This document shows positions 2,855 through 64,000 of a DNA stretch of 64,000 nt, one piece after another. The notes under the pieces were generated by a model. The model had not been told where the DNA came from. It saw nothing but the letters and a program-made list of their open reading frames with translations, and searched no databases. The position numbers and the translations under genes were made by a program. The DNA lies in the IMG/VR virus record IMGVR_UViG_3300031949_001696. The stretch is one strand, 5' to 3'. This stretch comes from a virus. Lineage: Duplodnaviria > Caudoviricetes. The first letter of the stretch is position 1; each line of letters opens with the position of its first letter.

Positions 2855-3394
2855 CTACCGGCGTCGCGCCTTCCGCGGCTGCGCTTCGTGGATCTGACCG
2901 CCAGCTGCGCGGATCTCGTCAGGGTGCGTGCCTGCTGCTCCCTTCGAGTGATCGGTCACCGTCATCGCGCCGCTCTTCCCGAAGTGTCGCGAGACCAGCT
3001 TTCGCGGAATCGTCTCGAGCTTGCCGCGGTCGTCGGCCCTTTGGGCGTCCGGCTCGTCCTTGCTCCGGTAGATGTTTCCGCGGTGGTCTTTGTACATCTG
3101 GGGCTGGATGTGCTGGAACGAGAACGTCTCGTCGCCGTATCCCTTAATGGCGCTCGTCGGATGCGTCGGATGTCCTTCGCTCGCGAAGGAGTCGCGCATC
3201 TCCGTCGCGATGCGATGGGAGGTACTCATGCCCGTCGAGCTTGTGCTGCTGGGAATGGAAGGTGCGTCTTCCGCGTGGCTCGCCGCGTGCGTGCCGCTGC
3301 CCGGACCACTGCCGAACGTTCCGTTGCGCCTCGAAAGCACCTCGTTGATCTCGCGATCGAGCTGCGCGGGGCTCTTCTTCTTGGTCGGCGACAT
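2855..3394 (-). CDS. Hypothetical protein with N-terminal KKKSPAQLDREI tag
   Basis: AAAGGAG RBS before MSPTKKKSPAQLDREINEVL. Confidence 0.7.
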   Translation of the reverse strand: MSPTKKKSPAQLDREINEVLSRRNGTFGSGPGSGTHAASHAEDAPSIPSSTSSTGMSTSHRIATEMRDSFASEGHPTHPTSAIKGYGDETFSFQHIQPQMYKDHRGNIYRSKDEPDAQRADDRGKLETIPRKLVSRHFGKSGAMTVTDHSKGAAGTHPDEIRAAGGQIHEAQPRKARRR

Positions 3395-3422
3395 GGAACT
3401 CCTTTCCAATGGAGGCAGCGAT

Positions 3423-3956
3423 CTACTTCAAGGGACGCCCACACCGACGACAAATGCGGGCGTGACCGAGGCTGCGATAGTACCGCTCTTCTTCGGCTGC
3501 CAAGTTCCTCTCGTAGACGTAGTCGGGCAGTCTGAACGCTAGCTGCGACTCGCGAGCGGGACTCGTATCGTTCAACGCGTCGAGGTCGATCCGGTCGAGA
3601 CAGTACGGCTTGCCTTCGGGCATCGCCGCCCAAACAGCCTGCGCGATCGTCTTAGCGCCTCGTTTGCCTTGCAGATCGTACTTGTGGTTGATGGCGTCGA
3701 ATTCGGACGGAAAGACTGCGTAGTCCGCGCCGCCGTAATTCTGGACAACCTCGTAGTTGGTATCGAGAAACGCTTTGAGCGCCTTGGTCTTGGTGTCGTA
3801 GCAGACGCGATCTTCTTCGGGCGCTGCCTTCCGCCACCAGTTCGCGAGTTGGGTGCTGTGGGAAAGGTGACGGTTCGTGAGCGTAGGCGCGCGACCTGAC
3901 GCGAGCGTCTCGGCGATCTCGCGGTCGAGCTGGGCCGCGGTCTTCTTCTTCGCCAT
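3423..3956 (-). CDS. Hypothetical protein with N-terminal KKKTAAQLDREI tag
   Basis: MAKKKTAAQLDREIAETL; TAGGAT-7nt-ATG. Confidence 0.75.
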   Translation of the reverse strand: MAKKKTAAQLDREIAETLASGRAPTLTNRHLSHSTQLANWWRKAAPEEDRVCYDTKTKALKAFLDTNYEVVQNYGGADYAVFPSEFDAINHKYDLQGKRGAKTIAQAVWAAMPEGKPYCLDRIDLDALNDTSPARESQLAFRLPDYVYERNLAAEEERYYRSLGHARICRRCGRPLK

Positions 3957-3969
3957 GTCGGCGATCCTA

Positions 3970-4800
3970 TCAGCTCGACGGCGACTTCGTAGCTTGAGAG
4001 CCGATCAGCAGCTCGTGATCGAGTCGCGAGAGATCCGCGAAACGATGCAGCCCCGTCTTGTACTCATCAGGGATGCCTTCGAGCCCAAACCGCGCGCCGA
4101 GGACCGCACCCGCGATCGCACCTCGAGTGTCGGTATCGCCACCGAGCTTGATGGCCGCGATCACGCCATCTCGAAAACTATCGTGGTGAAGCGCGCAGTA
4201 GATCGCGGTCGCGGTGATCTGCCACGCGTTACCGCGGCGGCCCGCACTTGCGTTCATGAATTCTTCTGGGCTCGCGCCCAGGGACAACGTGATGCTCGCG
4301 CGAATCAGCGCCCCTTCGACGTGTGTCTGTGGATGTTGGCTGCCGCTACGTCGCGAGAAGCTAATCAGTCTGTCGATCACGTGCGGCAGGATGGCGCGGC
4401 GTGTGACGCCATCCTGAAGTGCGAGGCTGACCGTCATCGCGACCGCGAAGCTCGCCGCGATGGCTTCTGGATCTGCGTGCGTGATGTACGCGTCCGATCT
4501 GCACGCGTTAAGAAGCGCCGCTCCGTTTTTGTAGAACGCGCCGATCGGAGCAGCCCGCATCGGTGGAGCGCTGCCGACCTTGTGAGGATCGTCGAACGCT
4601 ATGCCGCTATGTTGCCAGCGCACGCCCTCGCCCAGCGCTTCCATCGCCAGCCGCGTTGTTCCGCCCATGCCGTGCGGTGTCCCCTGCGACCATGCGAGGT
4701 AGCGCCTGGCGACGTCGGCGCCGTCGAAGCCGTGACACGCGATCAGCGACGTCGCGAGGCATTCGGCCATCTCGGTGTCGTCCGTAAAATGTCCGGCCAG
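3970..4800 (-). pseudogene. ADP-ribosylglycohydrolase (ARH/DraG family), C-terminal ~275 aa; N-terminus lies at 29302-29448
   Basis: LAGHFTDDTEMA, MRAAPIG, TH, GGDTDTRGAIAGA motifs; the GDALG N-terminal motif is absent here. Confidence 0.85.
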
Positions 4801-4871
4801 TCCTCCTGTTTCAGTTGCTCGCGCAGCTCGCGAATCTGCGCGTCGGTGATCGTGCCGGCCGTGAGCTTCAC
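4798..4871 (-). pseudogene. N-terminal half of a 'TITDxQIREL...CAEILNAR' family gene; C-half at 29446-29602
   Basis: VKLTAGTITDAQIRELREQLKQED then loses family similarity. Confidence 0.75.
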
Positions 4872-5260
4872 GTACCGCTCCTGGCGTTGAGGATCTCGGC
4901 GCAGCGCGCGCGAACCTGCTCCTTGGCGCGCGGAATCTCGGCCTCGGTCGCGCAGCCGTAACCGATATACGTGCCGTCGGGCAGGGTGATGCCCACCGAC
5001 CACACGCCTAGCTCGCCGTTGTACTCCGCGAGGATCTGCTCGTTCGTGATCAACCGCAACGCACGCGCGTTGAACAGCTCGGCGCAGTGGGCGCGAGCCT
5101 CCCGGCGATCTTCCGTGCTCCAGCCAGGCAGCGTCGCCACGGTCAGCTCGATGGCAGCGATCTCGTCCGCGTAGAACAGCTCGCGGATCTGATCGTCGGT
5201 GATCGTGGCGGCGGTGAGCTTCGCGGCATTATCTGCACGGGAAGTGATCAAGTCGCCCAT
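4868..5260 (-). CDS. 'TITDDQIREL...CAEILNAR' family protein (two units)
   Basis: KLTAATITDDQIRELF...CAELFNAR...CAEILNAR. Confidence 0.7.
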   Translation of the reverse strand: MGDLITSRADNAAKLTAATITDDQIRELFYADEIAAIELTVATLPGWSTEDRREARAHCAELFNARALRLITNEQILAEYNGELGVWSVGITLPDGTYIGYGCATEAEIPRAKEQVRARCAEILNARSGT

Positions 5261-6749: not shown

Positions 6750-6764
6750 GGGCGTGTCCTTGTT

Positions 6765-9004: not shown

Positions 9005-9005
9005 G

Positions 9006-11599: not shown

Positions 11600-11600
11600 G

Positions 11601-13939: not shown

Positions 13940-15469
13940 TTACGCGCCTTTCTGAGCAGTGCGCGGAGCCAATCGCGCTCGGCCATAAAGCAGTCTCTCA
14001 ATAGCCGCGCTAATGGCTAGTTTGTCTTTCTGCCAGTTACGAACGGTGTCAGGAGACACGGCCAGAAGATCAGCGGCAGCTGAGATACTCGCGCCATGAA
14101 ACGTCGGGCTCGCTGCGGACCGAGCTGCGCGCAGGATGCTGCGCACGCATTCTTTGTCTCCGCATGACTTTCGTTTCGCGAAGACGCACGGACTGTCGCC
14201 GTCCCGTGGTTCAAGCAGCACACTACAGCCTGGACATCGGCGCCCATCAACAAGCTTCGTGGTGGTTCGTACCAGAGAGGCGTATTTGCTCGCACATGTC
14301 CCTTCACCACAGGTCTTTCGCCCTACGAAGTTTTCTAGCCTTTCCCCGGCCCTCCGCTCAATAAGCTCATCACAGATTGGACAGTGCCTCGCGACAACCA
14401 CGGTGACGGCTCTTTTGAGCGCGCTTGCTTTGGTCGCGCAGCCTGCTTTCATGCCGCACGTCTTCCGCCTCATGAAAACGCACGGCGTTTCGCCGCCTTT
14501 TCGTTTGAGTGGTTTCGTACAGCTCGGGCAGCACCGCCCTGCGATAACCTTCGTAGTCGTCTGGAGGTTGCTTGCGCATTTTTGGCCGCACGTCGAGCGC
14601 TTCGCGAATTCGTATAGCGGTTCGCCCTCTTTCCGCTCGAGCAACTTCTTGCAACTCGGGCGTGGGCAGCGACGCCCCGCGACGATCTTCGTCGTGGTGC
14701 GTACCATAGACTTGTACTTGCTCACGCACGCCTTATCACAGCACGTGGCGCGTTTGGAAAACCACGTCAGGCTTTCCCAGGCCCTCCGCTCAAGCACCGC
14801 GTCACAGCTTGGACAACAGCGTCCCGCAACAACCTTCACGGCGGGTTTTTGTGCGGCAACCCACGCAAAAGCGCACTTACGACTGCACGTCTTTCGCTTC
14901 ACGAACCTGTGCTGCGCTTCGCCTTCCTTCTGCTTGAGCGTTTTTCTACAACTCGGACTCGGACAGCGGCGACCGGTAACGACCTTCGTAGTCGTCCTGA
15001 ACTTGCTCAGGCACTCGTCTCGGCCGCACGTCTTCCGCTTCGCGAATGACCACGTCTTCTCACCCTCTTTTTGCCTGAGCAGCTTCTTGCAGCTCGGACA
15101 GCGGCGTCCAACGACGATCTTCGTCGTGGTCCTCACCGCGGACAAGAGTTTGGCCCCGCAGCCCTCTTTATTATGGCCGCACGTCTTCCGCTTCGCGAAC
15201 GCAGACAGTGACTCGGCCTTTTTTTGCTTGAGCAGCTTCTTACAACTCAGGCAACGGCGACCGACGACGATCTCGGTGACAATTCTTTTCGCCGCGCCAA
15301 GCTGATAGACGCACGTGCGATCGCACGTCTTTCTTTTTGCGAAGTCACACGGCTTCTCTCCGTTTTTGCGCTTGAGCTTCTTCTTGCAGCTCTCACAACG
15401 GCGCCCTGTGACATCCTTCGTAGCGATCAGTGGCGCAGTGAGCTTGGAGCGGAGGGAGGAGAGCTTCAC
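13940..15469 (-). CDS. Tandem Cys4 zinc-finger repeat protein (9 repeats of ~48 aa) with C-terminal HTH
   Basis: Repeat TTKxVxGRRCPSCxKxLxxKxGE-xxxx-FAKRKTCG..C; GGAGG RBS before GTG 15469. Confidence 0.8.
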   Translation of the reverse strand: MKLSSLRSKLTAPLIATKDVTGRRCESCKKKLKRKNGEKPCDFAKRKTCDRTCVYQLGAAKRIVTEIVVGRRCLSCKKLLKQKKAESLSAFAKRKTCGHNKEGCGAKLLSAVRTTTKIVVGRRCPSCKKLLRQKEGEKTWSFAKRKTCGRDECLSKFRTTTKVVTGRRCPSPSCRKTLKQKEGEAQHRFVKRKTCSRKCAFAWVAAQKPAVKVVAGRCCPSCDAVLERRAWESLTWFSKRATCCDKACVSKYKSMVRTTTKIVAGRRCPRPSCKKLLERKEGEPLYEFAKRSTCGQKCASNLQTTTKVIAGRCCPSCTKPLKRKGGETPCVFMRRKTCGMKAGCATKASALKRAVTVVVARHCPICDELIERRAGERLENFVGRKTCGEGTCASKYASLVRTTTKLVDGRRCPGCSVLLEPRDGDSPCVFAKRKSCGDKECVRSILRAARSAASPTFHGASISAAADLLAVSPDTVRNWQKDKLAISAAIERLLYGRARLAPRTAQKGA

Positions 15470-15551
15470 ACGCCCTCCCAAAGCTCGGCGATCTGCCTCG
15501 CGGTGAGTACGGCGGCGCGTTTCACGAACTCGCCACCAAAGCCATTCCAGC

Positions 15552-17054
15552 TCACCGCACACCTTCTTGAGTGGTGCGCGGAGTCGGGCGTGCTCGATTA
15601 CAAAGGTCTTTCGGCTGGAGGGACTTCTCGATAGCCGTGTCGATAGTCATTCCACAGCTCCGCCAATTATGAATCGTAGAGCTTGTCACACCTAGAAGTG
15701 CAGCGGCAGCTGAGACGTCCGTCCCATGAAACAGTTTCTTATACTGACACTCTTCATCTCGACATAACTTTCGTTTTGCGAAACTGCTCGCGCTCTCGTT
15801 ATTCCGTTGTTCAAGCAGCTTTCTACATCTCAGGCATCGCCGCCCAGCGATGACCTTTGTAGTGGTGCGCACCCTGGATTTATTCTTACGAACGCATACT
15901 TCATCACCGCACGTCGCTCGTTTTGCAAAAGCACTCGGACTTTCCCCGGCGCTCTGCTCAAGAAGCTCAGCGCAGATTGGACAACGGCGCCCTGCGACGA
16001 TCTTCGTGGTAGTTGTGTGTGCCGCTCCCAGCAGGACGGCACACTCACCGCCGCATGTCTTTCGTGCCGCGAATGCACTTGGCGCCTCCCCCTTTCTTGG
16101 TTTGAGTAGCTTCGTACAACTCGGACAGCGGCGCCCGACGACAACCTTCGTGGTCGTCAGGAACCTATACACACATCGTTTTTTACCGCACGTTTTCCGC
16201 ACAGCGAACGCGGCTACGGGCTCGCCCTCTTTTCGCTTGAGCGACTTCCTACAACTCGGACAGCTTCTCCCTGCGACGACCTTCGTGGTGGTCAGCACTT
16301 CGGCCAAGTGTTTTGCTGCGCAGCCCGCTTTCTTGCCGCACGTCTTTCGACTCAAAAAGTCATTCCGTGACTCTCCTTCTCTTCGCTTCAATGCTTTTTT
16401 GCAGCCGGGTGCCAGACAAAAACGCGCTGGATCGCTCTTCGCCCAGGTCGCGGATAGCAGGCTGCCATAACATTTCTCCCCGCACGTCTTCCGTCCCGCG
16501 AAGGCGTTTAGCGCCTCGCTCTTTCTTCGCTTGAGCAGCTTCCTACAACTCGGACAGCGTCGCCGCGTGACGGTGCGAACAACTCCGCCGCTGTGAATGA
16601 CATGTTGGTGCCAGCTCACGCACTTCTTTCGACCACACGTCTTCCGTCTTGCAAATGAGCTTAGCGACTCGCCTTTTTTTCGCTTGAGCAGCTGCTTACA
16701 ACTTGGGCAACGTCGCCCCGCGACGACCTTGATGGTGGTCCTTGTCGCCTTGCTAAGTTTTGCCGCACAGCCTGCTTTATGACCGCACGTCTTCCGCCGC
16801 GCGAAGAAAAAAGGCGATTCGCTCTCCTTTCGCTCAAGCACTTTGTCGCAGATCCGACAACAACGCCCCGCGACGATCTTGGTAATGAACCTTTTCGCCA
16901 TGCCCAGTAGGGCCGCACAGCCCGCTTTCTTACCGCACGTCTTCCGACTTGCGAAGTTACCGAGCTGCTCTCCCTCCTTCCGCTTGAGCACCTTGCCGCA
17001 GACCAGGCAACGACGCCCTGCGACGATCTTGAAGGAAGAGCGTTGCGCCATCAT
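15552..17054 (-). CDS. Tandem Cys4 zinc-finger repeat protein (9 repeats) with C-terminal HTH, paralog of 13940-15469
   Basis: Same repeat; ends FHGTDVSAAAALLGVTSSTIHNW. Confidence 0.8.
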   Translation of the reverse strand: MMAQRSSFKIVAGRRCLVCGKVLKRKEGEQLGNFASRKTCGKKAGCAALLGMAKRFITKIVAGRCCRICDKVLERKESESPFFFARRKTCGHKAGCAAKLSKATRTTIKVVAGRRCPSCKQLLKRKKGESLSSFARRKTCGRKKCVSWHQHVIHSGGVVRTVTRRRCPSCRKLLKRRKSEALNAFAGRKTCGEKCYGSLLSATWAKSDPARFCLAPGCKKALKRREGESRNDFLSRKTCGKKAGCAAKHLAEVLTTTKVVAGRSCPSCRKSLKRKEGEPVAAFAVRKTCGKKRCVYRFLTTTKVVVGRRCPSCTKLLKPRKGEAPSAFAARKTCGGECAVLLGAAHTTTTKIVAGRRCPICAELLEQSAGESPSAFAKRATCGDEVCVRKNKSRVRTTTKVIAGRRCLRCRKLLEQRNNESASSFAKRKLCRDEECQYKKLFHGTDVSAAAALLGVTSSTIHNWRSCGMTIDTAIEKSLQPKDLCNRARPTPRTTQEGVR

Positions 17055-19207
17055 CGTGTCCTCGACCGCTCATTCCCGCGCCCTGCGCGATCGATGTGCT
17101 CGATCCACTCCGCGGGGATTTTACCTGCCTGCACGGCTTTCTCCGCACGCGCCCGTAGCTCCGCACGCCGCTCCTCAAACTGCTTCCAGTTCAACAGGAC
17201 GAGTTCGGCCTCCTGCTCCTCAAAGATCTGTCGCCGCGGCTTCCTCTCCGGCTGCTCAGCGCCGCAGTGTTTGCACTTGGTGCACGACCACGCGATCACC
17301 GCTGGACATCCGACACAGTCTTTGACGCGCGGTTCAACGTCTGCGTTAGGGCGCTCCCCCGCGCCATGCTCAAGAGACCATGGCCAATCTTCGCCGGGAA
17401 CGTGCAGAAGGCGCTCACAGTTTGCGCCGTGATCGAGCACGATCTTTTTGGTCGGTCCTTCTGCGCGTAGCACGCGGGCGATCATCTGCATGAATCTGGC
17501 GAGGCTCTTGGTGGGACGCGCGATGATGACTGCGCCGAGCTCTGGCAGATCCCAGCCCTCGCAAAGCACGTCGACGTTGCACAAGACTTCAAGCTCGCCG
17601 CGGCGAAACCTGCCGATGAGCCGTTCGCGCTCAGTCGCGTCTGTCTCACCGTCGAGATAAGCCGCCTTGATCCCAGCCTTCCTGAACTGCGCGGCGATCC
17701 TCTTCGCGTGCTGACGGGTCGCACCAAACACGAGCTTGCGAACACTCGGAGCCCACTTGATGGCCTCCTTGACGACGTGGCCGATCAGTAGCGGCCGATC
17801 CACCGCGCGACGGAGCGACGACGACGCGTAATCGCCGCCGATCGTCTTTGCACCTTTGAGACCCTTCGCGAGTGCTGCAATAATCTTGGCATCTGCATGG
17901 AGCGTGACAGGATCACGCAGGTAGCCGGCGGCATACAATTCGCTGGGCTTGGCGGCGACCTTCAGAACCTGAAAGAAGTCGCCGAGACCACGACCATCGA
18001 GACGGCACGGCGTGGCCGTCAAGCCGAGCGCGTCGGCACGCGGACACCTCGCCGCAATCGCCTGATACGAATCGGCCATCGCGCGGTGCGCCTCGTCGAA
18101 GACGATCAGGTCGATGTCTTCCGGCAGCTCACGGAGGCTGATCGTCTGCACGCTGCCGATCTGAACACGTGCGTCGAGGTCCACGTGCTCGGGGTAGAGC
18201 TGCTCGTACTTCGCACACTGGACGCCGCAGCGCACGCCAAGTTTCACGAGTCGAGCGCGCGCCTGACCGATCAGCTCAGTCCGATGGGCCAGCCAGAGCA
18301 CACCACGCCAACGCTTTGTCCGCGAAATGAGAAGTGACGCAATGACGGTTTTTCCAGATCCTCCGGGAGCGACCAGGAGAACGCGACGATCTTTCGCGAG
18401 CAGCGGGTCCAGCTCGACGACGGTGCGCTCCTGATACGGACGACGATCTAGTTCCTGTGAAATGCCTGCGGCAAGTCGAAAGGCCGCTACGCGTTCGGCA
18501 GGCAGCGCGTACGGTGAAGCAGCTGCTGGATAAGCACGGGAGGCGGCTAGATCATCTGTAGTGATCCGGGCGAACGCCGGTTGCATCACCGAAGACTTCT
18601 CGATGGAGCTATCGCGCCAGAGCGCCGCACACATCGGCATTCGATGTCCCGTATAAGCCAGGACGGACACGAGCCGATGATCTTGCGGGGTTCGCCTGTC
18701 AAGCAATTCCACGCGGCCCGCCAGTATCGGATCTGGGATCCCCCCGAATGTTCCGTGATCGTACTGCTCGACGACATCACGTCCATAAGAGAACGTGAGC
18801 ATGAAGACCCCACGACGAACGATCGCCGAGTAGACGTCAACCACATTCTCGACATCACGTGTGATCGAGCCGCAAAGATCCAAGTTGATCGCGTCAACCC
18901 CGTGCAGCTCCTTGAGCGGGGGTCTCTTGAAAAGATCGGCGTGCACAACTAGATCCGCTCCCGCCTTGGTCGCGGCCCGACAACATGCTGGGTCGCGATC
19001 GACGGCAATCACCACAGCCGTTGGCATGTGCCGACGAATGCATGCGATCTCTTCAGCCGGCTCGGGACCGGCAACCATAGCCAGCCGCCATTTGGCATGG
19101 TGGACTCTGTCCCGACGCCGAAGAAACGCTTTTACCGCGAGCCAGTGCTCTTCGCGGACAAAGCGCTTGGCATCGGTGCTCTTGGAAGCGTCAAACTTAC
19201 GAGTCAC
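17051..19207 (-). CDS. SF2 DEAH helicase (RadD/YejH-like) with N-terminal SAM-binding-like domain and C-terminal Zn ribbon
   Basis: RPYQ, APGGSGKT, FDEAH, TATP, LCEGWD, QMIARVLR, CxxC..CxxC; N-term VIAVDRD / DAINLDLCG. Confidence 0.85.
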   Translation of the reverse strand: MTRKFDASKSTDAKRFVREEHWLAVKAFLRRRDRVHHAKWRLAMVAGPEPAEEIACIRRHMPTAVVIAVDRDPACCRAATKAGADLVVHADLFKRPPLKELHGVDAINLDLCGSITRDVENVVDVYSAIVRRGVFMLTFSYGRDVVEQYDHGTFGGIPDPILAGRVELLDRRTPQDHRLVSVLAYTGHRMPMCAALWRDSSIEKSSVMQPAFARITTDDLAASRAYPAAASPYALPAERVAAFRLAAGISQELDRRPYQERTVVELDPLLAKDRRVLLVAPGGSGKTVIASLLISRTKRWRGVLWLAHRTELIGQARARLVKLGVRCGVQCAKYEQLYPEHVDLDARVQIGSVQTISLRELPEDIDLIVFDEAHRAMADSYQAIAARCPRADALGLTATPCRLDGRGLGDFFQVLKVAAKPSELYAAGYLRDPVTLHADAKIIAALAKGLKGAKTIGGDYASSSLRRAVDRPLLIGHVVKEAIKWAPSVRKLVFGATRQHAKRIAAQFRKAGIKAAYLDGETDATERERLIGRFRRGELEVLCNVDVLCEGWDLPELGAVIIARPTKSLARFMQMIARVLRAEGPTKKIVLDHGANCERLLHVPGEDWPWSLEHGAGERPNADVEPRVKDCVGCPAVIAWSCTKCKHCGAEQPERKPRRQIFEEQEAELVLLNWKQFEERRAELRARAEKAVQAGKIPAEWIEHIDRAGRGNERSRTR

Positions 19208-29448: not shown

Positions 29449-29602
29449 CCACGCCAAGAAGGGACCGCGCACATGGGCAAGAGTCGCCGTGTGCAATAGC
29501 GCCCTCGCTGGCGCCAATGCGCAGTCCGCCGTCGTGCGTGAGGTACGTCAGCACTACCGCGGCCTCTGTGCCGAGATCCTCAACGCAAGGAGCCCCACGT
29601 GA
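29446..29602 (+). pseudogene. C-terminal half of a TITD/CAEILNAR family gene (N-half at 4798-4871)
   Basis: ...HYRGLCAEILNARSPT* with no own family N-terminus. Confidence 0.75.
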
Positions 29603-29859
29603 AGCTCACCGCCGACACGATCACCGACGATCAGATCCGCGAGCTGTTCACGGCCCACTGCGAGTGCCGCCCGCTCGACGTCGATCGCCCCTCGCACAGC
29701 CACGACTGCGACGACGACATCGTGGAAGACTGCCGCGTGGCACTCGGCGGCTATCCGAACGGACAGATCGGCCCACGCAGCACGATGACCGCGATCATCC
29801 AGCGCCAGGCCGCGCGCCGGATCTGCACGGAGCGGCTCAACGAGAGAGACGCCAAGTGA
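29599..29859 (+). CDS. TITDDQIREL family protein
   Basis: VKLTADTITDDQIRELF...RRICTERLNER. Confidence 0.7.
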   Translation: MKLTADTITDDQIRELFTAHCECRPLDVDRPSHSHDCDDDIVEDCRVALGGYPNGQIGPRSTMTAIIQRQAARRICTERLNERDAK

Positions 29860-32628: not shown

Positions 32629-32784
32629 ATGATCAAGCCCGAGCCGCACCCGCACCAGCTCATCCCCGAGGAGTGCGCTGCCGACACGGCCCGCGCACAT
32701 CTGAGCCAAGCCAAGGCCACCACACTCGACGGCGACAGTTTCGACATCCGCGACGTACTCGCGACCAACTGGATCGCCTCGTGA
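32629..32784 (+). pseudogene. Chimeric ORF: N-terminus of the 33974 family fused to the C-terminus of the 31855 family
   Basis: EPHPHQLIPEECAADTARA + FDIRDVLATNW. Confidence 0.6.
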
Positions 32785-32981
32785 AGCTCACTGCCGCGAC
32801 GATCACCGACGCGCAGATCCGAGAGCTGTACGACGAGCTTCGGCAGCGTGACGAATGGATCGGGGGCGGGCTGGACTGCGAAGACGCGCTCTTCCGCTTA
32901 TCAGGACACGAACAAGCCCGTGCTCGCTGTGCCGAGATCCTCAACGCAAAGAACCATGCTTATCCGGTTAACACCCCGTGA
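32781..32981 (+). CDS. TITD/CAEILN family protein, 3' end altered by cassette insertion
   Basis: VKLTAATITDAQIRELY...ARARCAEILNAKN. Confidence 0.7.
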   Translation: MKLTAATITDAQIRELYDELRQRDEWIGGGLDCEDALFRLSGHEQARARCAEILNAKNHAYPVNTP

Positions 32982-33973: not shown

Positions 33974-34219
33974 ATGAAGAGGAATGCCCGATCTGAACCG
34001 CATCCACACCAGCTCACCCCCGAAGAGTGTGCTGCCGACACGGCCCGCGCGCAGCTGAACCAGGCCAAGGCCGCCGCGCTCGACGCCTGGCACGCCGCGA
34101 AGCGCTGCCTGGATCACCTCGACGAGACCGCCGATCCGGCGTGGATCGCGGACGCGGAAGCTGCCGCGAAGCACGCGCGAAAGCTCTTCGATGCGCTCGT
34201 GCTGGAAACGGAGTGGTAG
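33974..34219 (+). CDS. Hypothetical protein
   Basis: EPHPHQLTPEECAADTARA family. Confidence 0.55.
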   Translation: MKRNARSEPHPHQLTPEECAADTARAQLNQAKAAALDAWHAAKRCLDHLDETADPAWIADAEAAAKHARKLFDALVLETEW

Positions 34220-36557: not shown

Positions 36558-37268
36558 ATGGCGGCGAGCAAGCGTCGCGCGCGGTCTCGTCGCGTGGTCG
36601 TCGATCGGTCGGCTACCACCGACGTCGTCTCGCAGCTCGAATGTGCCGCGCGCAATCCTCATGCGGCCCTGATCGGCGCCCTGATCGGCGGCCTCGTGCC
36701 GTGGTTCGGCCGCACGCTCGCGCATGACCAGGTCCCGACTGCATGGTCGGCCGGCAACACGTCGCTCGTGATGGTGATGCTCGCGGTCGTGCTGGGCTGC
36801 GCGCTGTTCTCCGCGCTGTCCGTCTACAAGTTCGGCAAAGCCGCGTTCGGCGACTCGAAGAAAGCGCTCGGCTTCGTCCTCGCCCTGGAGGGCGTGATGC
36901 TCGTGACGACCGGCGCTACGAGCACGGTCGCGCTGGCGGTCCTGATCCTCATCAACGCGGTCGCGAACGGATCGGTGATCGCACTCTCGCGCGACGCAAC
37001 GAACAAGCGCCGCGAGGCCGACGCCCGCCGCGCCGCGACCCGTGCCCGCAGTCGCGCGCCAGGGCCGATTGCCCAGCCCAGTCACCAGGCCCCCATCGAA
37101 GTAATCGAGCCCGAGCCCGAGACCACGGCTGCGCCGCGCCGCGCCCCGCGACGCACGCCAGTGACCAGCGCCGCCGTGGTCAAGGTGCCGCGCACGTGGC
37201 GCAAGGCGACGCTCGACGACGACGTGATCGACGCGGAGATCGTCTCCGAAGAAAGGCTCCTGGCGTGA
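36558..37268 (+). CDS. Multi-pass membrane protein
   Basis: Four hydrophobic segments. Confidence 0.65.
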   Translation: MAASKRRARSRRVVVDRSATTDVVSQLECAARNPHAALIGALIGGLVPWFGRTLAHDQVPTAWSAGNTSLVMVMLAVVLGCALFSALSVYKFGKAAFGDSKKALGFVLALEGVMLVTTGATSTVALAVLILINAVANGSVIALSRDATNKRREADARRAATRARSRAPGPIAQPSHQAPIEVIEPEPETTAAPRRAPRRTPVTSAAVVKVPRTWRKATLDDDVIDAEIVSEERLLA

Positions 37269-46914: not shown

Positions 46915-47580
46915 ATGCTGCACTTCACCAGCGGCGACATGTTCGAGCTACCTGTCGACATTCGGGTGAACACCGTGAATTGTGTCGGTGTGATGGGTGC
47001 AGGCGTCGCCCTCGCTTTCAAGACTCGCCACCCAGCGATGTTCCGATCGTACAAGAAGGCTTGCGACGCAGGTGAAATCAGACCCGGAGCACTCAACATT
47101 TGGCACACGCTCAGCGAGTGGGTCATCAACTTCCCCACGAAGCGCCACTGGCGCGAAAACTCGAAATACGAGGACATCGAAGACGGGCTCAAGGCGCTTC
47201 GAACGTATTTGGATAGCATCGGACGCGCCGTGCGTGTTGCGCTGCCGGCGCTTGGGTGCGGTCACGGTGGACTGGATTGGTCGCGCGTTTCTAAACTCAT
47301 CGAGTGCCATCTCGCGACAACGGACGCTGAGGTCTTCGTGTTTGAACCTGCCGATTCGAGACGTGCGGGCGCGATAGCCTCGCAGCTGAAGAAGTCCAAG
47401 ATCGAACCTCGCTCCGACATGGTGTCGTATCCGACGTCGTCGGTCAGGATGGAAAGCATCGTGCTGATCGGGCCGCCCCATACACGGGCAGCGCTCGCGC
47501 CACCATCGAGCTTACCGATGCCGAGCGCAGAGACGGCCCCAGCGTCCCTCAAGGTCGAGGATCCCGAAGGCGGCTCGTGA
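46915..47580 (+). CDS. DarG-like macrodomain (ADP-ribose glycohydrolase)
   Basis: GDMF, VNTVNCVGVMGAGVA, INFPTKRHW, PALGCGHGGLDW. Confidence 0.9.
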   Translation: MLHFTSGDMFELPVDIRVNTVNCVGVMGAGVALAFKTRHPAMFRSYKKACDAGEIRPGALNIWHTLSEWVINFPTKRHWRENSKYEDIEDGLKALRTYLDSIGRAVRVALPALGCGHGGLDWSRVSKLIECHLATTDAEVFVFEPADSRRAGAIASQLKKSKIEPRSDMVSYPTSSVRMESIVLIGPPHTRAALAPPSSLPMPSAETAPASLKVEDPEGGS

Positions 47581-51161: not shown

Positions 51162-51956
51162 ATGGCGAAGAAGAAAACCGCGAAGCAGCTCGAGCGCGAC
51201 ATCCAGGCCGTGCTCCGACGTGACAAGCGATCGCATGCCACGAAGAAGTCCTCGGCACAGATCAGCCGCGAGATCACGGTCGCGCTCCACGCCCCCACGA
51301 TCACGAACCGCGAACAGATCTCCGATCGCACGTTACGCGCGCTGGGCGATGAACTCGACGAAGCCGCGGTTCGCGCTGTCGAGGCCGGCGGTGTGGGTGA
51401 CCTGACGTACCAGGGAGCTGGGGCAACCGGGATCGTGTTCTGTGACGCACGAAAAACCGCGTACAAGGTTGCGCGCCGCGGTCGCGAAACGTCCGTCTTC
51501 GAAGAGGCCGAATGGCTCGTGAAGGCCGGGCAGGTACCCGGGGCACGCGAGCACGTGGCACGCGACACGCGATACGACAAGAAGCATGACGTGCTCGTGC
51601 GCGAGTGCGTACCAGGCCCTGTCGGCACGTCGCGCCAGACTTCCAAGCTGTTCGACCTTCACAAGGGAATCCGAACTGCGATGACGCCTTATGGTTGGCT
51701 GTCACCAGAATTCAAAGAGGACAGCTACGTCATGGCCCGCGGGCGCGGCCCTGTGCTGGTGGATGCTTCGTCAGCACTCCGAGTCGGCGGCGAGCTGGTC
51801 CGCTACGCACAAGATGTTCTCGCCGCACGCCGGCCACAGACCGAGCGTCTGGAAGATATCGCGTTCGCCATTCGCCAGGAGCGTGGCAGCTCGATCCCAG
51901 AGGCGGTAGCAGACAAGTTGCTCGCCAAACTGCGAGCACGCGGCATCGATACCTGA
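51162..51956 (+). CDS. Protein-kinase-like fold protein with two N-terminal KK-QLxREI tags
   Basis: GAGATGIVF, AYKV, EEAEWL, VLVD; tags AKQLERDI and HATKKSSAQISREI. Confidence 0.6.
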   Translation: MAKKKTAKQLERDIQAVLRRDKRSHATKKSSAQISREITVALHAPTITNREQISDRTLRALGDELDEAAVRAVEAGGVGDLTYQGAGATGIVFCDARKTAYKVARRGRETSVFEEAEWLVKAGQVPGAREHVARDTRYDKKHDVLVRECVPGPVGTSRQTSKLFDLHKGIRTAMTPYGWLSPEFKEDSYVMARGRGPVLVDASSALRVGGELVRYAQDVLAARRPQTERLEDIAFAIRQERGSSIPEAVADKLLAKLRARGIDT

Positions 51957-53178: not shown

Positions 53179-53322
53179 ATGTCTGCGGCTACACGCAAGG
53201 ACGGCGTGCGCTGGATCGACACCACCGATCAGCCTGCGCGCTTCGGCCCCGCGCCGGAACCAAAGAAGACCGCCAAGCAACTCGACGAGGAGATCGCCGA
53301 GAGACTCGGCATCAAGGATTGA
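53179..53322 (+). CDS. 47-aa protein ending in KKTAKQLDEEI tag
   Basis: AAGGAG RBS; tag at C-terminus. Confidence 0.55.
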   Translation: MSAATRKDGVRWIDTTDQPARFGPAPEPKKTAKQLDEEIAERLGIKD

Positions 53323-54141: not shown

Positions 54142-54458
54142 CCGTCGACGAAGTCGTCACGACGCTCTTTGAGCTTGGCTTCTCGCCGGCAGGAGAAACG
54201 CCCCTGGAGCACGTGCGCATCCCGACGATGAAAGCGCCCGTCCTCGGTGGTATGGGCGGCGAGCGGCGCACGCTCGGTGGCAGAGCGCGCTACGTATTGT
54301 CTGGCACCGATCTACGGGTGACCGTCGGGCCGCGCACGACTAACGTGTACTTCTCACGCAGTGGCAAGACCGAGTTCGTACTGAACGAAAATACCAAGGA
54401 TCTAACCGCGCAGGCACTGCGGGACGTCGTTACCGCGGCAACGGGGAAGGCTACATGA
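54138..54458 (+). CDS. Hypothetical protein
   Basis: Coupled ORF. Confidence 0.55.
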   Translation: MTVDEVVTTLFELGFSPAGETPLEHVRIPTMKAPVLGGMGGERRTLGGRARYVLSGTDLRVTVGPRTTNVYFSRSGKTEFVLNENTKDLTAQALRDVVTAATGKAT

Positions 54459-54736
54459 AGTCAAAAAAGACGAAGAAGACGCACACACAGCTCGACCGCG
54501 AGATCACCGCCACGCTCTCCAAGCGAAAGCGCCGGCCGAAGCATCTCCTCACTTCACGGAGGTTGATCGTGATCGAATCCGACGGTGACCGCGACACGAC
54601 GACCTGGGAAGACTTCGTCGACGCTAACCGCGAGATGCCGGAGCTAGAAGACGTCGCGGCGGAGCTGCGACGCCACGGTCGCGCCACGGTCGGCGGTGGC
54701 GCGGCGCCGCTGACGGTGATCAGACTCGCCAACTAA
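54455..54736 (+). CDS. Hypothetical protein with KKTHTQLDREI tag
   Basis: N-terminal tag; C-terminal VGGGAAP. Confidence 0.65.
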   Translation: MKSKKTKKTHTQLDREITATLSKRKRRPKHLLTSRRLIVIESDGDRDTTTWEDFVDANREMPELEDVAAELRRHGRATVGGGAAPLTVIRLAN

Positions 54737-57002: not shown

Positions 57003-57274
57003 CCCTCGAAGACTTCAACACGATCGGCTGGCGCGACTTCCTCCTGTGGGCGTGGAACGAGCCCGAGATGCGTGCGCAGTTCACCGCGAAGACCGGCATC
57101 GAGATCCAATCGGTGACCTCTCCGATCAATGCTGCGATCGACGCGGCAACCGGAGCGAACAAGAGCGTCGCCGCGCGGTTCATCGAGTGGGCGACGCGCG
57201 AACACTGGGGCGTCGAGCATGCCCCCGCGGCGTATCAGAAGGCGATCACCGCCGAGGGGACGCGGAGCACGTGA
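56999..57274 (+). CDS. Hypothetical protein
   Basis: Coupled; its 5' end is duplicated near 56579. Confidence 0.55.
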   Translation: MTLEDFNTIGWRDFLLWAWNEPEMRAQFTAKTGIEIQSVTSPINAAIDAATGANKSVAARFIEWATREHWGVEHAPAAYQKAITAEGTRST

Positions 57275-57851
57275 ACGCACGCGCGATCCGCACGCTGTCG
57301 GAGGCGGAAGTAATCCGCCGCTGGGCGGAGCTGTATGCGGCCGGCAAGCACAAGGGGTACGCGCCGCCGAACCCAGAGCCGTACCTCGGACGCGGCGCGA
57401 CGTGGGTCGAGATCGAGGTGCCGCACGATCTCTATGACGCGGACTGGAACGCCCCCGAGAGCATGCCGCCGCGGAAGCAGCGTTCGACGAACGCGCATAT
57501 CGCAACTACGAAGGTATGGGCGATGACGACGAGAACGTCGTTATTGAGCGAGGCGGTCGCGAGCTTCGTCGTTTCGGTCCTGAGCTTCATCAGCCAACTT
57601 ATTTCGGAAGTCCACGCTCGAAGACAGCACGACGTCACTCGACGAAGAAGAAGTCTCCTGCCCAACTGGAACGCGAGATCGCCGAAGCTCTCTATCCCAA
57701 ACGCGACCGTAGGTCGTACTCGACAAAAAAACCGGCTCTAACAGAGCCGAAGGCCCGTGAGTACACGAAGCTCGCGACCGCGACGAACGTCCCGCGCATC
57801 GAGAAGTACATCAACGATTTCGCTTACTCAACAAACTACCGTGTCGATCCT
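57271..57851 (+). pseudogene. Fused gene fragments; second fragment carries RRHSTKKKSPAQLEREI tag and is cut by the micro-inversion
   Basis: Frame break near 57480; ends at NYRVDP. Confidence 0.5.
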
Positions 57852-58030
57852 CAGCGAGCGCTTGAAAGATTTCGCGGTCGAGTTGGTGAGCCGACTTTTT
57901 CTTTTTCTTCGGCATGTCTCTTCCTCCCCCTGCCTCAGCGCATGCGTCCGAACAAAAATCCACCACGGTAACGCATCACGAACCAGTTCTCCGGCGGCAC
58001 CTTGACCGGATTCGTGATTTGAAGCGTCTC
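57851..58030 (-). other. Inverted ~180-bp segment holding one gene's 3' end and the next gene's RBS and 5' end
   Basis: Minus strand reads ETLQITNPVK...FGRMR* GGAGG MPKKKKKSAHQLDREIFQALA. Confidence 0.7.
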
Positions 58031-58649
58031 TCACTCCACCAGGGAGCCAAGATCGTCTACGCGCCGGATCCACTCCACCAAGAAGGCAGGATCCTCTACG
58101 ACCCGCCGCTGGATCCACAAGGATGTCGCGCGCAGCTACAGCGTTCCCGAGGACGTCGTGCGACGCATCTACGCGACCGTGCAGACCGCCAAGCGTCAGG
58201 GTCTCTACGGTGGGTACTATCTCGATCTTCTTGAGCGCAACGTCGGTCGAAAGCTCGTGGGAGCCGAGTACACCGTCAGCACGCTGGCGAAAGAGCACCT
58301 GGGCTACGATCCACCAAGCGGCTACCAGGGTCCGAAGCCGAAGGGCTCTGCGAAGGAACCCCAGCGCCCGAAGTACGACGATCCGAAGGTTCGAGCTGCG
58401 GATCCGATCCGCTCAAGCGCAGAGAGGATCATCAAAGCCGTCCTCGATCGGAGGAGAGACCCGCGCTTCGGTTGGGACGAGTCGAATGATTCGCAGGATC
58501 GAGAGCTCCTCCAGCGGGCGGCGGACGAGCTGGACGTGGCCGCGGACCTCACCGAGGAAGCTGGAGCGCGTGTGTGGGCCGGGACGCTTCGCGAGCGCGC
58601 CAAGCAGGCCCGGCGAGGCGACTACAGGCTCCTGGACGCTTACAACTGA
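58029..58649 (+). pseudogene. C-terminal part of a tag-bearing protein whose start lies in the inverted segment
   Basis: SHSTREPR...IHSTKKAG...VVRRIYATVQ frame. Confidence 0.6.
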
Positions 58650-60119: not shown

Positions 60120-60509
60120 ATGCGTACCAAAACCACCGCCCAGCTCGACGCCGACATCGCCGAGTCCCTCCGCACCCGGAAGAAATTCCGCCGCGACAAA
60201 TCCACGCGGAAGAAACTTCCCGATGCCGCACGTGCCGCGATCGAGGATCGCGTCCTCACGATCATCGAGGGCACGTACAAGCGCTACGAAGAGTTCGGCA
60301 AATCCATCGGCCACAAGGAGCCGTGCCTCTCCGTCGGTCTCATCACCGACGATCTGCGCCAGCAGTCGGGCTTGCCCGAAGACTTCCGCTGGGCGACCAA
60401 GACGCGGCAGCGCACGTGGACGCGGACGATCCTCGAGTCGATGCGGCGTCGGGGATTGATCGGAGCGTCATTCGGCGTAGGGTCCCGCTGCTACGAGCCC
60501 AAACCATGA
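60120..60509 (+). CDS. Winged-HTH-like protein with KTTAQLDADI tag
   Basis: MRTKTTAQLDADIAESL; LESMRRRGLI. Confidence 0.6.
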   Translation: MRTKTTAQLDADIAESLRTRKKFRRDKSTRKKLPDAARAAIEDRVLTIIEGTYKRYEEFGKSIGHKEPCLSVGLITDDLRQQSGLPEDFRWATKTRQRTWTRTILESMRRRGLIGASFGVGSRCYEPKP

Positions 60510-60615: not shown

Positions 60616-61545
60616 TCAATATCCGTAGATCCGCGCGAGACGCGCGAACTCATCCCGTACGAGACACGACGGCAGGCACTCCCACGTCAGGGGAACGTAT
60701 GTCGAAGGACGCGGATGATGGTTGGTGCGAGCGTTCGTTGCCGCCAGGGCAGCTCGGATGCGTTCGAGGTCAACATCAATCTTGGCAGCCTCGCAAAGTG
60801 TCTTGAGGATCGTCGCGCCGCGAACCTCGCGCAGATCTTCCACGCGGTAACGACTATCCGTCCGACGCGCGCAACGACGGTTCATCTCCACCCACAGCCA
60901 CATCGCGGCCTGAATGGGCGCGCGATCCCACTTCGCACAGAATCCCGGAAACGCCTTCTCGAGGAGGCCCCACGCGGGTCCCTCACCCGCACACAGCCAT
61001 GAGTTGATCCAGGCGATGGGATCGCGCGTCTGGTGTGCGACCACGATGTCCGAAGGAACTGTGGCGAGTGCAAGGACTGCCTCCCAGGCGACTTCTGCCA
61101 CGTTGCTGCTCTCAACCACACAACCATGGAGCGTGTAGATCGCCTCATGCCCACAGGAGATCCCAGCAGTTTGCAGTGCCTTGGCTGTAAACATGGTCCC
61201 AGAATGGCGCCGGTCTGTTCCGCGATAGAAAGTGGTTTCGCCTTTGAGGGGTCCGCTGCCCCATACATGATATTGGGCAGCTGACTTTTTCGTGGCGTGA
61301 TGCCGTTTCGGCGCCTGACTGGGTAAAGGTGGCAAGCCGATCCGTTCGAGCTTGATCGCCTTGAACGTTTCCTCGGCGTTTCGACCCAATGCCGCGACCG
61401 CGTCACGGTGCCACTCCGGCGGGTTATAGCGAAAGGTCTTGGCGCTCCGACCGCGCTTGACCCAGTCTCGTTTTTGAGAGGCGGTCTCCTTCGAGGCTTC
61501 CCGCTCCAGCCATCGCTGGCCCGCTGACCACCAGTCGCTGCTCAT
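60616..61545 (-). CDS. Probable chimera: HATKK-tag protein N-terminus fused to a sulfotransferase-like domain
   Basis: RHHATKKSAAQ; HSGTMF...CGHE, RDPIAWINSW, YRVEDL, ARIYGY. Confidence 0.55.
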   Translation of the reverse strand: MSSDWWSAGQRWLEREASKETASQKRDWVKRGRSAKTFRYNPPEWHRDAVAALGRNAEETFKAIKLERIGLPPLPSQAPKRHHATKKSAAQYHVWGSGPLKGETTFYRGTDRRHSGTMFTAKALQTAGISCGHEAIYTLHGCVVESSNVAEVAWEAVLALATVPSDIVVAHQTRDPIAWINSWLCAGEGPAWGLLEKAFPGFCAKWDRAPIQAAMWLWVEMNRRCARRTDSRYRVEDLREVRGATILKTLCEAAKIDVDLERIRAALAATNARTNHHPRPSTYVPLTWECLPSCLVRDEFARLARIYGY

Positions 61546-61652: not shown

Positions 61653-62009
61653 TCAACGCTCGTACAACGGGAGCCCGGACGGAGGCGCGAAGATCAGATT
61701 GCCGACCCCACCACCAGCCATCCCCCCGAGGATGAACCCCCAGACGCGATGGGATTTCCACAGCACGGCTCCCGCGACGGATCCGATCGCCGACAGTCCG
61801 AGCGAACGCTGGAATGCTTGGTGCTGAGCTTCGGTCCAGGGACGCTTCGACTGCCACGACGAGTAGCCGCGGCGAGGCGCGTACCGTCCGCGATCGGGCG
61901 TAGGTGGTGCGGGCGCGGGCGGAGCGAGTGGCACCGGAGACTCCGTCTTCGGAGGTAGCTTATCGGCCCCGTTGCTGCCAATGAAGGATCGATATTCACC
62001 ACGCGCCAT
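61653..62009 (-). CDS. Membrane protein (two hydrophobic segments)
   Basis: MARGEYRSFIG start; TAAGAT-6nt-ATG. Confidence 0.6.
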   Translation of the reverse strand: MARGEYRSFIGSNGADKLPPKTESPVPLAPPAPAPPTPDRGRYAPRRGYSSWQSKRPWTEAQHQAFQRSLGLSAIGSVAGAVLWKSHRVWGFILGGMAGGGVGNLIFAPPSGLPLYER

Positions 62010-62021
62010 GCGGAGATCTTA

Positions 62022-62318
62022 TCACGGGTCTTGGAGGTATTGCTTGAGCGACTCGGGCAGGAGTGCTCGACGGAGCTTGGCGAACGCGGCCTCGATCGCG
62101 GTCGCTTCGGTCGGGCCTGTGCCTTGGTAGAAGCCTGTCGCGTGGTGCACGACTGCTTCGAGTATTCCTTCGAAGGCTTCTCGGCGCGTCGACGCTTCGA
62201 CGGCTTCGCTGAGTGACGGGTAGACGCGGATCGCGATGACTTCGAGGAGTAGGCGCTGCTCGCGCAGCTCGCCGAGCGTGGTCTCTTCGGTGATGTTTTT
62301 GGGATCGGGCACGCTCAA
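62022..62318 (-). CDS. Hypothetical protein
   Basis: GGAG RBS. Confidence 0.55.
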   Translation of the reverse strand: MSVPDPKNITEETTLGELREQRLLLEVIAIRVYPSLSEAVEASTRREAFEGILEAVVHHATGFYQGTGPTEATAIEAAFAKLRRALLPESLKQYLQDP

Positions 62319-62524
62319 CGCTCTCCCACCGCCGCGTAGTAGGCAACTTTTCCTGCCTCGGCGGCACGGTACGAAGCGCCTTTCCCTCGATACGCCGCGC
62401 TCGTCAGCGCGAGGCCATGCTCGACAAGCTTAGGAAGTACGCGGCGCAGTGATGCAAAAGACGCTGCTGCGATTCGGAAACAGGATCATGAGTTCGAGTA
62501 CGTCGCGCTGGTTCGCGGTTAGCT

Positions 62525-63019
62525 TCATACGACCTCGTAGATCCGATAACCGTTCCCGTGTTCGTCGACTCCGACGGTTTCTCGGAGCAAACCCATCTGG
62601 GCAAGTCGCGTGACCGTCTTCGAGTGCAGTCCTCGGACGGGCAAATTGATGACCCGCTTGTCGCCGATCATCGGATAGAACTGGAACTTGTACCGGTAGA
62701 CGCGTCTGTGCGAGCGAAGGATCTCCAGGTTGCGCTTCTGTGCCGCGGTCAACTTGGGAACCGCTTCCGTTTCGCGCGAGACGCTCGCGCACGGGGTCGA
62801 CCGTTTGTGCTCGACTTCCCACACCTCGACCTCGTCGTCGCTGTCATCTCCCTGAACGGCGAGCTGCCAGTCGAGCGGAAACAGCGCCTTCGTCTCGCGG
62901 ATCGCAGCTCGTGCGGCGCGCGCCGGGCCCATCCCCGCGTTCACGTGCCGTCGAGCGGCTTTCGCGAGCTGACTGCACGCGTGTTCGATCAGGTCTTGGT
63001 CGAGCTGTTGCGTGGCCAT
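62525..63019 (-). CDS. Hypothetical protein with C-terminal winged-HTH-like region
   Basis: KTVTRLAQMGLLRE...YRIY. Confidence 0.5.
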   Translation of the reverse strand: MATQQLDQDLIEHACSQLAKAARRHVNAGMGPARAARAAIRETKALFPLDWQLAVQGDDSDDEVEVWEVEHKRSTPCASVSRETEAVPKLTAAQKRNLEILRSHRRVYRYKFQFYPMIGDKRVINLPVRGLHSKTVTRLAQMGLLRETVGVDEHGNGYRIYEVV

Positions 63020-63020
63020 G

Positions 63021-63464
63021 TTAGTTGTCCGTTGGCGGCTTGTGGTAGTTCAAGATCCTGCCGTTCATGTCGCTCACGATGCGGCGGAAGCAGATGTAAC
63101 AGATCGGGCGTGCAGACCAGTCGGAGGTGTCGTGACAAGCGTCCATCCGTCCCCGTACGTCGGGCGCCGCAGTAGCAGCTTCTACCGCCCGGCGCGCCGC
63201 GGAACTACCGATATCAGCGTCGCCGACGACCAGTGCTGCGACGCCGCGATCGCCGAGCCAGTCGCCGATGCGAGCTGCCGGGTCGCCTGGCGGCGCGAGG
63301 CTCGCCCCGCATGAGCAGATCGCGATCGCGAACCGCGGCTTGTTGGGATCCTGCGTCTGAAACACGCGGCCGCATTCGTTACACATGACGTGAAACTTCC
63401 AACGCCTCGCACCGTGGACCTCACACGAGATCACGCGGACGTTTGCCGAGCTTGTAGAACTCAC
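63021..63464 (-). CDS. Cys-rich hypothetical protein
   Basis: GGAGG RBS; CNECG, CSCG, CYIC. Confidence 0.5.
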   Translation of the reverse strand: MSSTSSANVRVISCEVHGARRWKFHVMCNECGRVFQTQDPNKPRFAIAICSCGASLAPPGDPAARIGDWLGDRGVAALVVGDADIGSSAARRAVEAATAAPDVRGRMDACHDTSDWSARPICYICFRRIVSDMNGRILNYHKPPTDN

Positions 63465-64000
63465 GCGTCCTCCACGAGGATTCGCGCGAGGTCGTCGCGA
63501 TCGATCCGGCTCCACGCCGCCGGATCTTCGCCGGCGGGATCCGAGGTTCTCCAGATCGGCGCGGCTACTTGGATGTACCAGTGATCGTCGTCGTGTCCGA
63601 CCCACAGTGCTGCGGGGAGCGCGCTGCGAAGCTTCTTGCACGCGGCTTCGTACTCGGCCGTATCTGCGGTTGCGCGCGCGACCGCCAGGGCGCCGCGCCC
63701 AGCGCTGGACAGATCGACGTGCTCGGAGATCGCGGCGGCCCGCGCGCGCTGCGCGGTCCGTCCGAGCCGACGTGGTCGCGATCGTGGCTTGGCGATCACG
63801 GACGCGATCTCGCGATCGAGCACCTTTTCTTTCTGCCGCGGCGTGACCTCGACGACTTGGCCACCGACCTCGCGCGCGAACATGTCGGCCGTTGACCGCG
63901 CGTAGATCCACGAGGCGCGCGGGTTGTCGGGGCGCGAGTCGGGTGGGATCCACGCTGTTCCGTCAGGAAGGCGCACCTGCCAGATCTGCTCGGCGCTCAC
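63461..64000 (-). CDS. Hypothetical protein with internal KxKVLDREI tag variant
   Basis: QKEKVLDREIASVI; start at window edge. Confidence 0.5.
   Translation of the reverse strand: MSAEQIWQVRLPDGTAWIPPDSRPDNPRASWIYARSTADMFAREVGGQVVEVTPRQKEKVLDREIASVIAKPRSRPRRLGRTAQRARAAAISEHVDLSSAGRGALAVARATADTAEYEAACKKLRSALPAALWVGHDDDHWYIQVAAPIWRTSDPAGEDPAAWSRIDRDDLARILVEDA

Follow-up and report, generated by a model that had tools for sequence, protein, structure and literature searches.

In a 64,000-nucleotide stretch of a virus of the Caudoviricetes (IMG/VR record IMGVR_UViG_3300031949_001696; this whole stretch is hereafter called the window), a peptide tag with the core K-K-[ST]-x-x-Q-L-D-R-E-I-x-x-x-L recurs on otherwise unrelated proteins, and in a sister lineage the orthologues of three families of tagged proteins carry a transmembrane helix instead. 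The explanation that we favour, with a confidence slightly short of an even chance, is that the tag is a protein-docking helix which tethers soluble accessory proteins at the place where their relatives use a membrane anchor.

The repeat itself is real, beyond chance and conserved at the protein level. Over all six frames of the window, a strict regular expression recovered eight copies and a looser one nine, against a chance expectation of 0.05 copies in DNA-block shuffles and 0.01 when residues were shuffled within proteins; nine to ten copies of the core lie in coding frames. A profile built from seven of the copies and run on the same six frames scored these seven at 36-43 bits and four further sites at 6-17 bits, with unrelated frames topping out at 3 bits. 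These scans recovered the copies from which an earlier, sequence-only reading of the window had described a portable peptide on about ten unrelated proteins, and the four placements listed there (N-terminal, internal, C-terminal and doubled) were all seen in the window. That reading had also placed the conservation at the protein level, which is borne out because the codons differ and the upstream DNA is unrelated: 108 of 342 identical residue pairs between copies are encoded by different codons, both TCN and AGC codons occur at the Ser position, and the 80 nt 5' of the six N-terminal copies show no alignment among them. The same unrelated upstream DNA rules out a promoter or leader cassette.

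When the tags are superposed at their core, the full consensus reads R-H-H-A-T-K-K-S-P-A-Q-L-D-R-E-I-A-E-A-L; next come [ASG] and an Arg-, Lys-, Ser- and Gly-rich stretch. As a module the tag is autonomous and about 20 residues long, consisting of two Lys, an N-capped, acidic, amphipathic helix of 13 residues and a disordered linker rich in Arg and Lys. Along the helix, [ST]-P-A-Q-L-D-R-E-I-A-E-A-L, the residues Leu, Ile, Ala and Leu share one face, with a hydrophobic moment of 0.49-0.52, a net charge of -2 and no aromatic residue, and in the AlphaFold2 models of two tagged proteins, both with deep alignments, each tag forms an isolated helix. Because of this charge and the lack of aromatic residues, the helix looks like a peptide for a protein groove and not for a lipid surface. 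Almost every helix position is conserved among the representatives found by the profile search described below, and the near-invariance of these residues suggests one fixed pocket.

The evidence that carries the docking explanation comes from the orthologues of tagged proteins. Among 120 homologues of the kinase-like protein encoded at 51162-51956, close relatives carry two tags and others have a single canonical tag, or else a tag with a basic linker and H-A-T after it, whereas members at about 45-57% identity have at their start a hydrophobic helix some 20 residues long, with R-R-R and then (G/P)-L-x-(G/D)-(V/I) behind it (64 with tag versus 10 with transmembrane helix). Likewise, among 102 homologues of the protein encoded at 3423-3956, the tag, linker and H-S-T are swapped for a hydrophobic helix and R-R-R at 54-70% identity (68 versus 10). 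DUF5661 bears an N-terminal tag in the tag lineage and a C-terminal hydrophobic, transmembrane-like helix in the sister-lineage locus L084, so that a transmembrane helix with an Arg cluster occurs in sister-lineage orthologues of three cargo families, N-terminally in two and C-terminally in one. On trees of the cargo domains alone the tag and anchor labels appeared strongly clustered, and the anchored forms of the first two families both lie on contig L082, itself without any tag. The four loci by which the tag-free sister lineage was sampled (L082-L085, 74 kb in total) contain no tag, the best score being 6.7 bits. Within the tag lineage, 1014 distinct proteins comprise 159 tagged ones and 49 with a transmembrane-like segment; none has both, where 7.7 were expected (P = 2e-4).

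By these comparisons, a given cargo has one slot that is taken either by the tag or by a membrane anchor, and for this reason the tag most likely tethers soluble proteins where the relatives are anchored. In the anchored sister-lineage proteins the domain faces the cytoplasm by the positive-inside rule, and the (G/P)-L-x-(G/D)-(V/I) stretch may be the counterpart of the H-A-T joint discussed below. The tag is comparable to the N-terminal signal-anchor helices of phage and bacterial membrane proteins, which take the same slot on orthologous cargo and have a similar Arg-rich stretch behind them; those helices span the bilayer, whereas the tag, being hydrophilic, cannot do so and must act via a partner protein.

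The tag is restricted to a single lineage. When 1.84 billion representative proteins were searched exhaustively with the profile, 235 matched at E<=0.001; the ten that were looked up all come from metagenomes, several of them on contigs of 250-410 kb, and homologues of window proteins lie on contigs of up to 502 kb. Among 185,579 bacterial and archaeal species, each represented by one genome, none had the motif, DNA patterns, whether exact or degenerate, found no match in IMG/VR, and 20 kb of the window compared by megablast with deposited phages gave none, while JGI metagenomes yielded 81 confirmed tag loci on contigs of 60-69% GC. No Pfam family matched the tag on eight window proteins or in the tag regions of 150 tagged representatives, PHROGs gave nothing attributable to the tag on the 140 proteins of the window, and in the literature searched no paper turned up for QLDREI or for DUF5661. 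The earlier statement that the peptide belongs to no described family therefore holds, and neither a known domain nor an occurrence in cellular proteomes has come to light. Two further observations concern these loci. An untagged membrane protein of the window, 36594-37268(+), with three or four membrane-like segments and a basic tail, recurs near tags in seven loci, and nothing ties it to the tag. A member of the kinase family on a 117.8 kb contig (P0206) is part of an NCBI metagenome-assembled genome labelled Gaiellaceae, a label that may point to the host (Actinomycetota) or may reflect an error of binning.

The position of the tag within proteins is bimodal: 44 tags have at most 6 residues before K-K, 99 have at least 41 and 16 fall between. 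H-A-x stands ahead of just one of the 44 N-proximal tags, and H-[AS]-x ahead of 77 of the 99 that follow a module of at least 41 residues. Counted by placement, the window and the related loci hold 77 N-terminal, 70 internal and 10 C-terminal tags. A further 80 H-[AS]-[TV] sites, four times the composition expectation, occur in basic linkers of tagged proteins with the consensus (R)(R)[SAHG]-H-[AS]-T-[KRM], and 20% of tags have an H-[AS]-T site 0-16 residues downstream. On this sequence evidence, module boundaries have a joint motif of their own, H-[AS]-T set in a basic linker. One middle module is found free-standing at another locus, and there it ends six residues ahead of where H-A-T stands in the fused protein; around the tag, the 56 clusters of N-side modules pair freely with the 77 clusters of C-side modules, and cargo families are nearly always tagged or never. 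The junction of 3423-3956 is kept as [LA]-[SA]-H-S-T in orthologues, and in the model of this protein it lies in a linker whose predicted local distance difference test score (pLDDT) averages near 50 for residues 21-30 and is under 50 at 27-30, ahead of a confident cargo domain; in the model of 51162-51956, H-A-T lies in a coil with a pLDDT around 70-79. Fused and split versions of gene pairs are few, and none has its neighbours arranged in the precise way needed to prove fission at H-A-T. Taken together, the sequences make H-A-T most likely a protease processing site, and the motif behaves as the distinct junction that the proposal of H(A/S)TKK as a processing site had implied. Relatives encode a YgjP-like metallopeptidase.

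In the mechanism that we propose, all tags would dock on the same receptor, a protein peculiar to this virus lineage. Docking would hold soluble proteins, namely a minimal protein kinase, DUF5661, sigma-region-4 and SprT-like proteins and many unknowns, at the place where the sister orthologues are anchored by transmembrane helices, which would be a membrane surface, i.e. the host inner membrane. A protease would recognize (R)-(R)-[SAHG]-H-[AS]-T-[KRM] at module boundaries; cutting at H-A-T would bring internal tags near a new N-terminus, like the tags at gene starts, and might also free the cargo from the tag or from neighbouring modules, making gene fusions harmless. The final destination could be either the virion or a membrane-bound replication or assembly site. 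A more far-reaching version, which we put forward only tentatively, is that a giant soil virus lineage replaced the transmembrane anchors of its accessory proteins by a soluble docking peptide of universal use, its receptor and the H-A-T processing site. Seen in a different way, and with the same reserve, a bacterial virus would here possess a modular system of protein addressing and polyproteins, in which the joint is cut, the label is read afterwards, and genes can fuse, split and shuffle freely.

Several points weigh against this explanation. No candidate for the receptor was found, whole genomes of either lineage not having been compared, and no protease was found among the window genes, although the earlier proposal of a shared docking signal is indirectly strengthened by the anchored sister orthologues and by the exclusion between tag and transmembrane segment, and that of a processing site by the behaviour of the junction. 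H-A-x is missing from about one fifth of the internal tags, and the C-terminal tags number at least 10, so that a free N-terminus is no absolute need. In the family of 60120-60509, 18 of 20 homologues are tagged and none of the 20 is membrane-anchored. Transmembrane segments were called by hydropathy only, and the related loci were picked for carrying tags, which biases the tag densities there (locally up to 8-9 tags per 10 kb). Finally, the anchor swap shows an equivalent slot and not an identical destination.

The alternative that survives best, although we consider it improbable, is a strict cleavable capsid-loading signal of the T4 type, in which the tag would bind the scaffold or the inner capsid face, the cargo would be packed together with the DNA, and a maturation protease would then cut at H-A-T. 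In bacterial viruses it is rare for dozens of unrelated proteins to share a linear address label, and the textbook case is the T4 capsid-targeting sequence, which serves a head of the HK97 fold and which the gp21 protease removes; the T4 prohead-protease site is of the (L/I)-x-E type. As in T4, a short peptide is the sole feature common to diverse small phage proteins and a candidate cut site follows it, in a common layout of tag, basic linker, H-A-T and cargo, and the cargo (kinase, sigma-region-4, SprT-like) looks like take-over or counter-defence equipment. This diversity of proteins with only the peptide in common recalls the T4 internal proteins, where the conserved targeting sequence is N-terminal on IPI-III and Alt and acts via the scaffolding core (PMC3012670). 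The tag, however, has no sequence similarity to it, and the strict N-terminal position does not apply, given the numbers of internal and C-terminal copies. I-A-E lies within five of nine window tags without being invariant, and it is H-[AS]-T that recurs as the junction. In nearly half of the cases the tag is internal and H-A-T lies upstream of it, so that a cut would leave the tag on the cargo; the sister equivalents are membrane-anchored and face the cytoplasm, with no obvious fit to a DNA-filled lumen; and the tagged genes lie in accessory-gene islands, in a window where, as said, no protease was found. The suggestion of T4-like virion packaging or injection in the sequence-only reading is thus disfavoured, since the tag is often internal and the anchor swap points to a membrane-proximal site and not to the capsid interior.

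Less probable still, and in our judgement unlikely, is a client-recruitment peptide for a virus factory or condensate, whose helices would bind a scaffold or each other and whose doubled forms, which do exist, would raise valency. Such a design is known from the encapsulation peptides of bacterial microcompartments, amphipathic helices of 15-20 residues that sit on a disordered linker at either terminus of unrelated enzymes or between domains, and dock on a shell or scaffold (PMC4594438, PMC12339742, PMC11157265). The tag resembles them in its hydrophobic moment and charge, in its amphipathic helix (residues 7-20 and 31-42 in one model and 7-19 in the other) and in its variable, poorly conserved basic linker of low pLDDT. 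Encapsulation peptides, in contrast, keep a hydrophobic pattern only, whereas the tag keeps almost every residue, bears a Lys-Lys prefix, a basic linker and a separate junction motif, and is viral; furthermore, a cytoplasmic condensate does not predict the exchange with a membrane anchor. No microcompartment shell family appeared among the Pfam matches of the 140 window proteins or of 145 family representatives from relatives. Encapsulin cargo-loading peptides, which are terminal, mostly C-terminal, extended and rich in Gly, Ser, Ile and Leu, also bring varied cargo on a flexible linker into a protein shell; the likeness ends with the peptide on its flexible linker and the varied cargo, the tag differing in consensus, position and helicity.

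Three other explanations appear less likely. A handle for a viral DnaJ acting with host DnaK, or a timed degron exposed by a cut at H-A-T, seems very unlikely: a complete type-I DnaJ (J domain, Cys-rich and C-terminal domains) lies between tagged genes of relatives at L022:13586-14710(+), and also at L020:4112-5236, and a cut after H-A-T would expose Lys, but DnaJ and DnaK prefer hydrophobic and aromatic residues, in which the helix is poor, the DnaJ is a mere neighbour in tag-selected loci, and a degron leaves the anchor replacement unexplained. Marginally less credible than the chaperone handle is direct membrane binding as an in-plane amphipathic anchor, which would suit the replacement of a transmembrane helix and the flanking basic residues; against it stand the helix charge of -2, three acidic residues beside a narrow Leu/Ile/Ala/Leu face, the missing aromatic residues and the dissimilarity to the membrane-targeting sequences of MinD and FtsA. 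Least plausible of all is that the stretch has no addressing role and persists through module shuffling as a neutral linker or recombination joint: modules do recombine around the tag and H-A-T, but synonymous and Ser-family codon differences, unrelated flanks and strong residue conservation over contigs of 60-69% GC show selection on the peptide, and families keep the tag stably.

A resemblance to the N-terminal half of ribbon-helix-helix proteins (K-x-x-x-x-L-D-x-E-I-x-x-x-L) was rejected, as no second helix follows a G-x-[STN] turn, the downstream sequence is variable, basic and disordered, and no ribbon-helix-helix family matched. The hydrophobic spacing of the tag does not seem to fit the clamp-binding motif (Q-L-[SD]-L-F), the PIP box, the Pup helix, the DnaK motif or ClpX tags.

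The cargo proteins are largely unfamiliar. The AlphaFold2 model of 51162-51956 (mean pLDDT 94) has a protein-kinase fold, matching the kinase domains of Rio2, RIP2 and PknB at a Foldseek probability of 1.0, in agreement with its earlier description as kinase-like. The cargo domain of 3423-3956 found no match in the PDB by Foldseek (E>=2) or VIA-align (Z<=2.7). On the 150 tagged representatives Pfam recognized only DUF6496 (five proteins), Sigma70_r4, SprT-like, SPOR, HTH_24, NAD_binding_6 (the ferric-reductase NAD-binding domain) and KOW.

What our analysis adds to the earlier observations is the bimodality of tag positions, the evidence on module boundaries, the lack of the tag in cellular genomes, the kinase fold, the equivalence with the anchor and the mutual exclusion of the two. 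About one gene in six is labelled within gene-dense accessory islands of viruses of up to ~500 kb, in loci that were selected for tags. The anchor exchange makes the question testable, as a receptor should be found only in the tag lineage and probably at the membrane. The H-A-T joint, if true, would explain the free shuffling of small modules in these genomes, and peptide and receptor, if confirmed, would offer a compact orthogonal tethering pair for engineering. The copies, junctions and anchors are listed below.

Table. Tag copies and junctions in the window, and anchor elements in sister-lineage loci (bits refer to profile scores)
Feature	Position	Strand	Remarks
N-terminal tag, gene 2855-3394	3335..3391	-	42 bits; starts M-S-P-T-K-K-K-S-P-A-Q-L-D-R-E-I
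N-terminal tag, gene 3423-3956	3903..3953	-	41 bits; AlphaFold2 helix 7-19, low-confidence linker after it
H-S-T junction between tag linker and cargo, gene 3423-3956	3852..3860	-	residues 33-35, pLDDT ~50, directly before conserved cargo start Q-L-A-N-W-W
First, degenerate tag, kinase-like gene 51162-51956	51165..51215	+	37 bits with window profile, 16-18 with clade profile; model helix 7-20
H-A-T junction between both tags of 51162-51956	51234..51242	+	in model coil 21-30
Second tag, kinase-like gene 51162-51956	51243..51287	+	37 bits; model helix 31-42
C-terminal tag, 47-codon gene 53179-53322	53263..53307	+	17-29 bits; protein identical to database representative P0022
N-terminal tag, gene 54455-54736	54464..54517	+	38 bits
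H-S-T junction and internal tag, frame 57516-57971	57636..57692 (tag 57645-57692)	+	41 bits
34-codon tag-only frame	57811..57915 (tag 57856-57912)	-	43 bits, best copy with window profile; antisense to 3' end of 57516-57971
N-terminal tag, Q-L-D-A-D-I variant, gene 60120-60509	60126..60170	+	10-24 bits
R-H-H-A-T-K-K-S-A-A-Q, junction and first tag half without helix, within gene 60616-61545	61273..61305	-	11-13 bits
Marginal tag-like K-V-L-D-R-E-I-A-S-V-I, frame 63461-64000	63794..63820	-	6 bits; in frame with gene of high G+C at third codon positions (GC3); resembles N-terminus of tagged relative P0225
Membrane helix and Arg cluster, then (G/P)-L-x-(G/D)-(V/I)	L082:2532-3302(-), L082:10001-10534(+), L083:8788-9570(+), L084:9270-10480(+), L085:3171-3659(+)		

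Two of the listed tags, 57645-57692(+) and 57856-57912(-), sit in frames ignored by public gene calls, and their scores show that both frames are translated now or were so recently. The composition of the minus-strand frame is neutral as to coding, and this frame could be either the gene of a tag-only mini-protein or a remnant. The frame 57516-57971 has a second Y-S-T-K-K at 57717-57731. A public gene call, 57271-57741(+), overlaps it and reads another frame at the tag; GC3 favours the called frame only up to ~57540, and a frameshift or two overlapping genes within 57271-57971(+) are possible. The N-domain of this region is fused to the kinase in the relative P0271. A match to H[AS]TKK at 58071(+) is probably in a non-coding frame.

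The window as a whole (63% G+C) is densely packed with about 136 short genes, among which a tyrosine integrase, an N6/N4 DNA methylase, a 2-oxoglutarate-Fe(II) oxygenase, a helicase, an ADP-ribosylglycohydrolase, a macro-domain protein and an exonuclease are recognisable. The ADP-ribosylglycohydrolase, 3970-4770(-), adjoins two tagged genes; this enzyme and the macro-domain protein, 46915-47580(+), are counter-defence candidates because both remove ADP-ribose. A second N-terminal peptide, K-L-T-A-x-T-I-T-D-x-Q-I-R-E-L, occurs on four otherwise different small proteins of the window, 4743-4871(-), 4868-5260(-), 29599-29859(+) and 32781-32981(+), and in none of 80 related loci. An island of lower G+C (0.57-0.60) at 13940-19207(-), whose codon usage deviates from the rest, carries a helicase and two paralogues with a ligase-type zinc finger and a C-terminal helix-turn-helix, and may be a recent insertion. 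Finally, on both sides of the DNA methylase gene lie the paralogues 32629-32784(+) and 33974-34219(+), which share P-H-P-H-Q-L-x-P-E-E-C-A-A-D-T-A-R-A.

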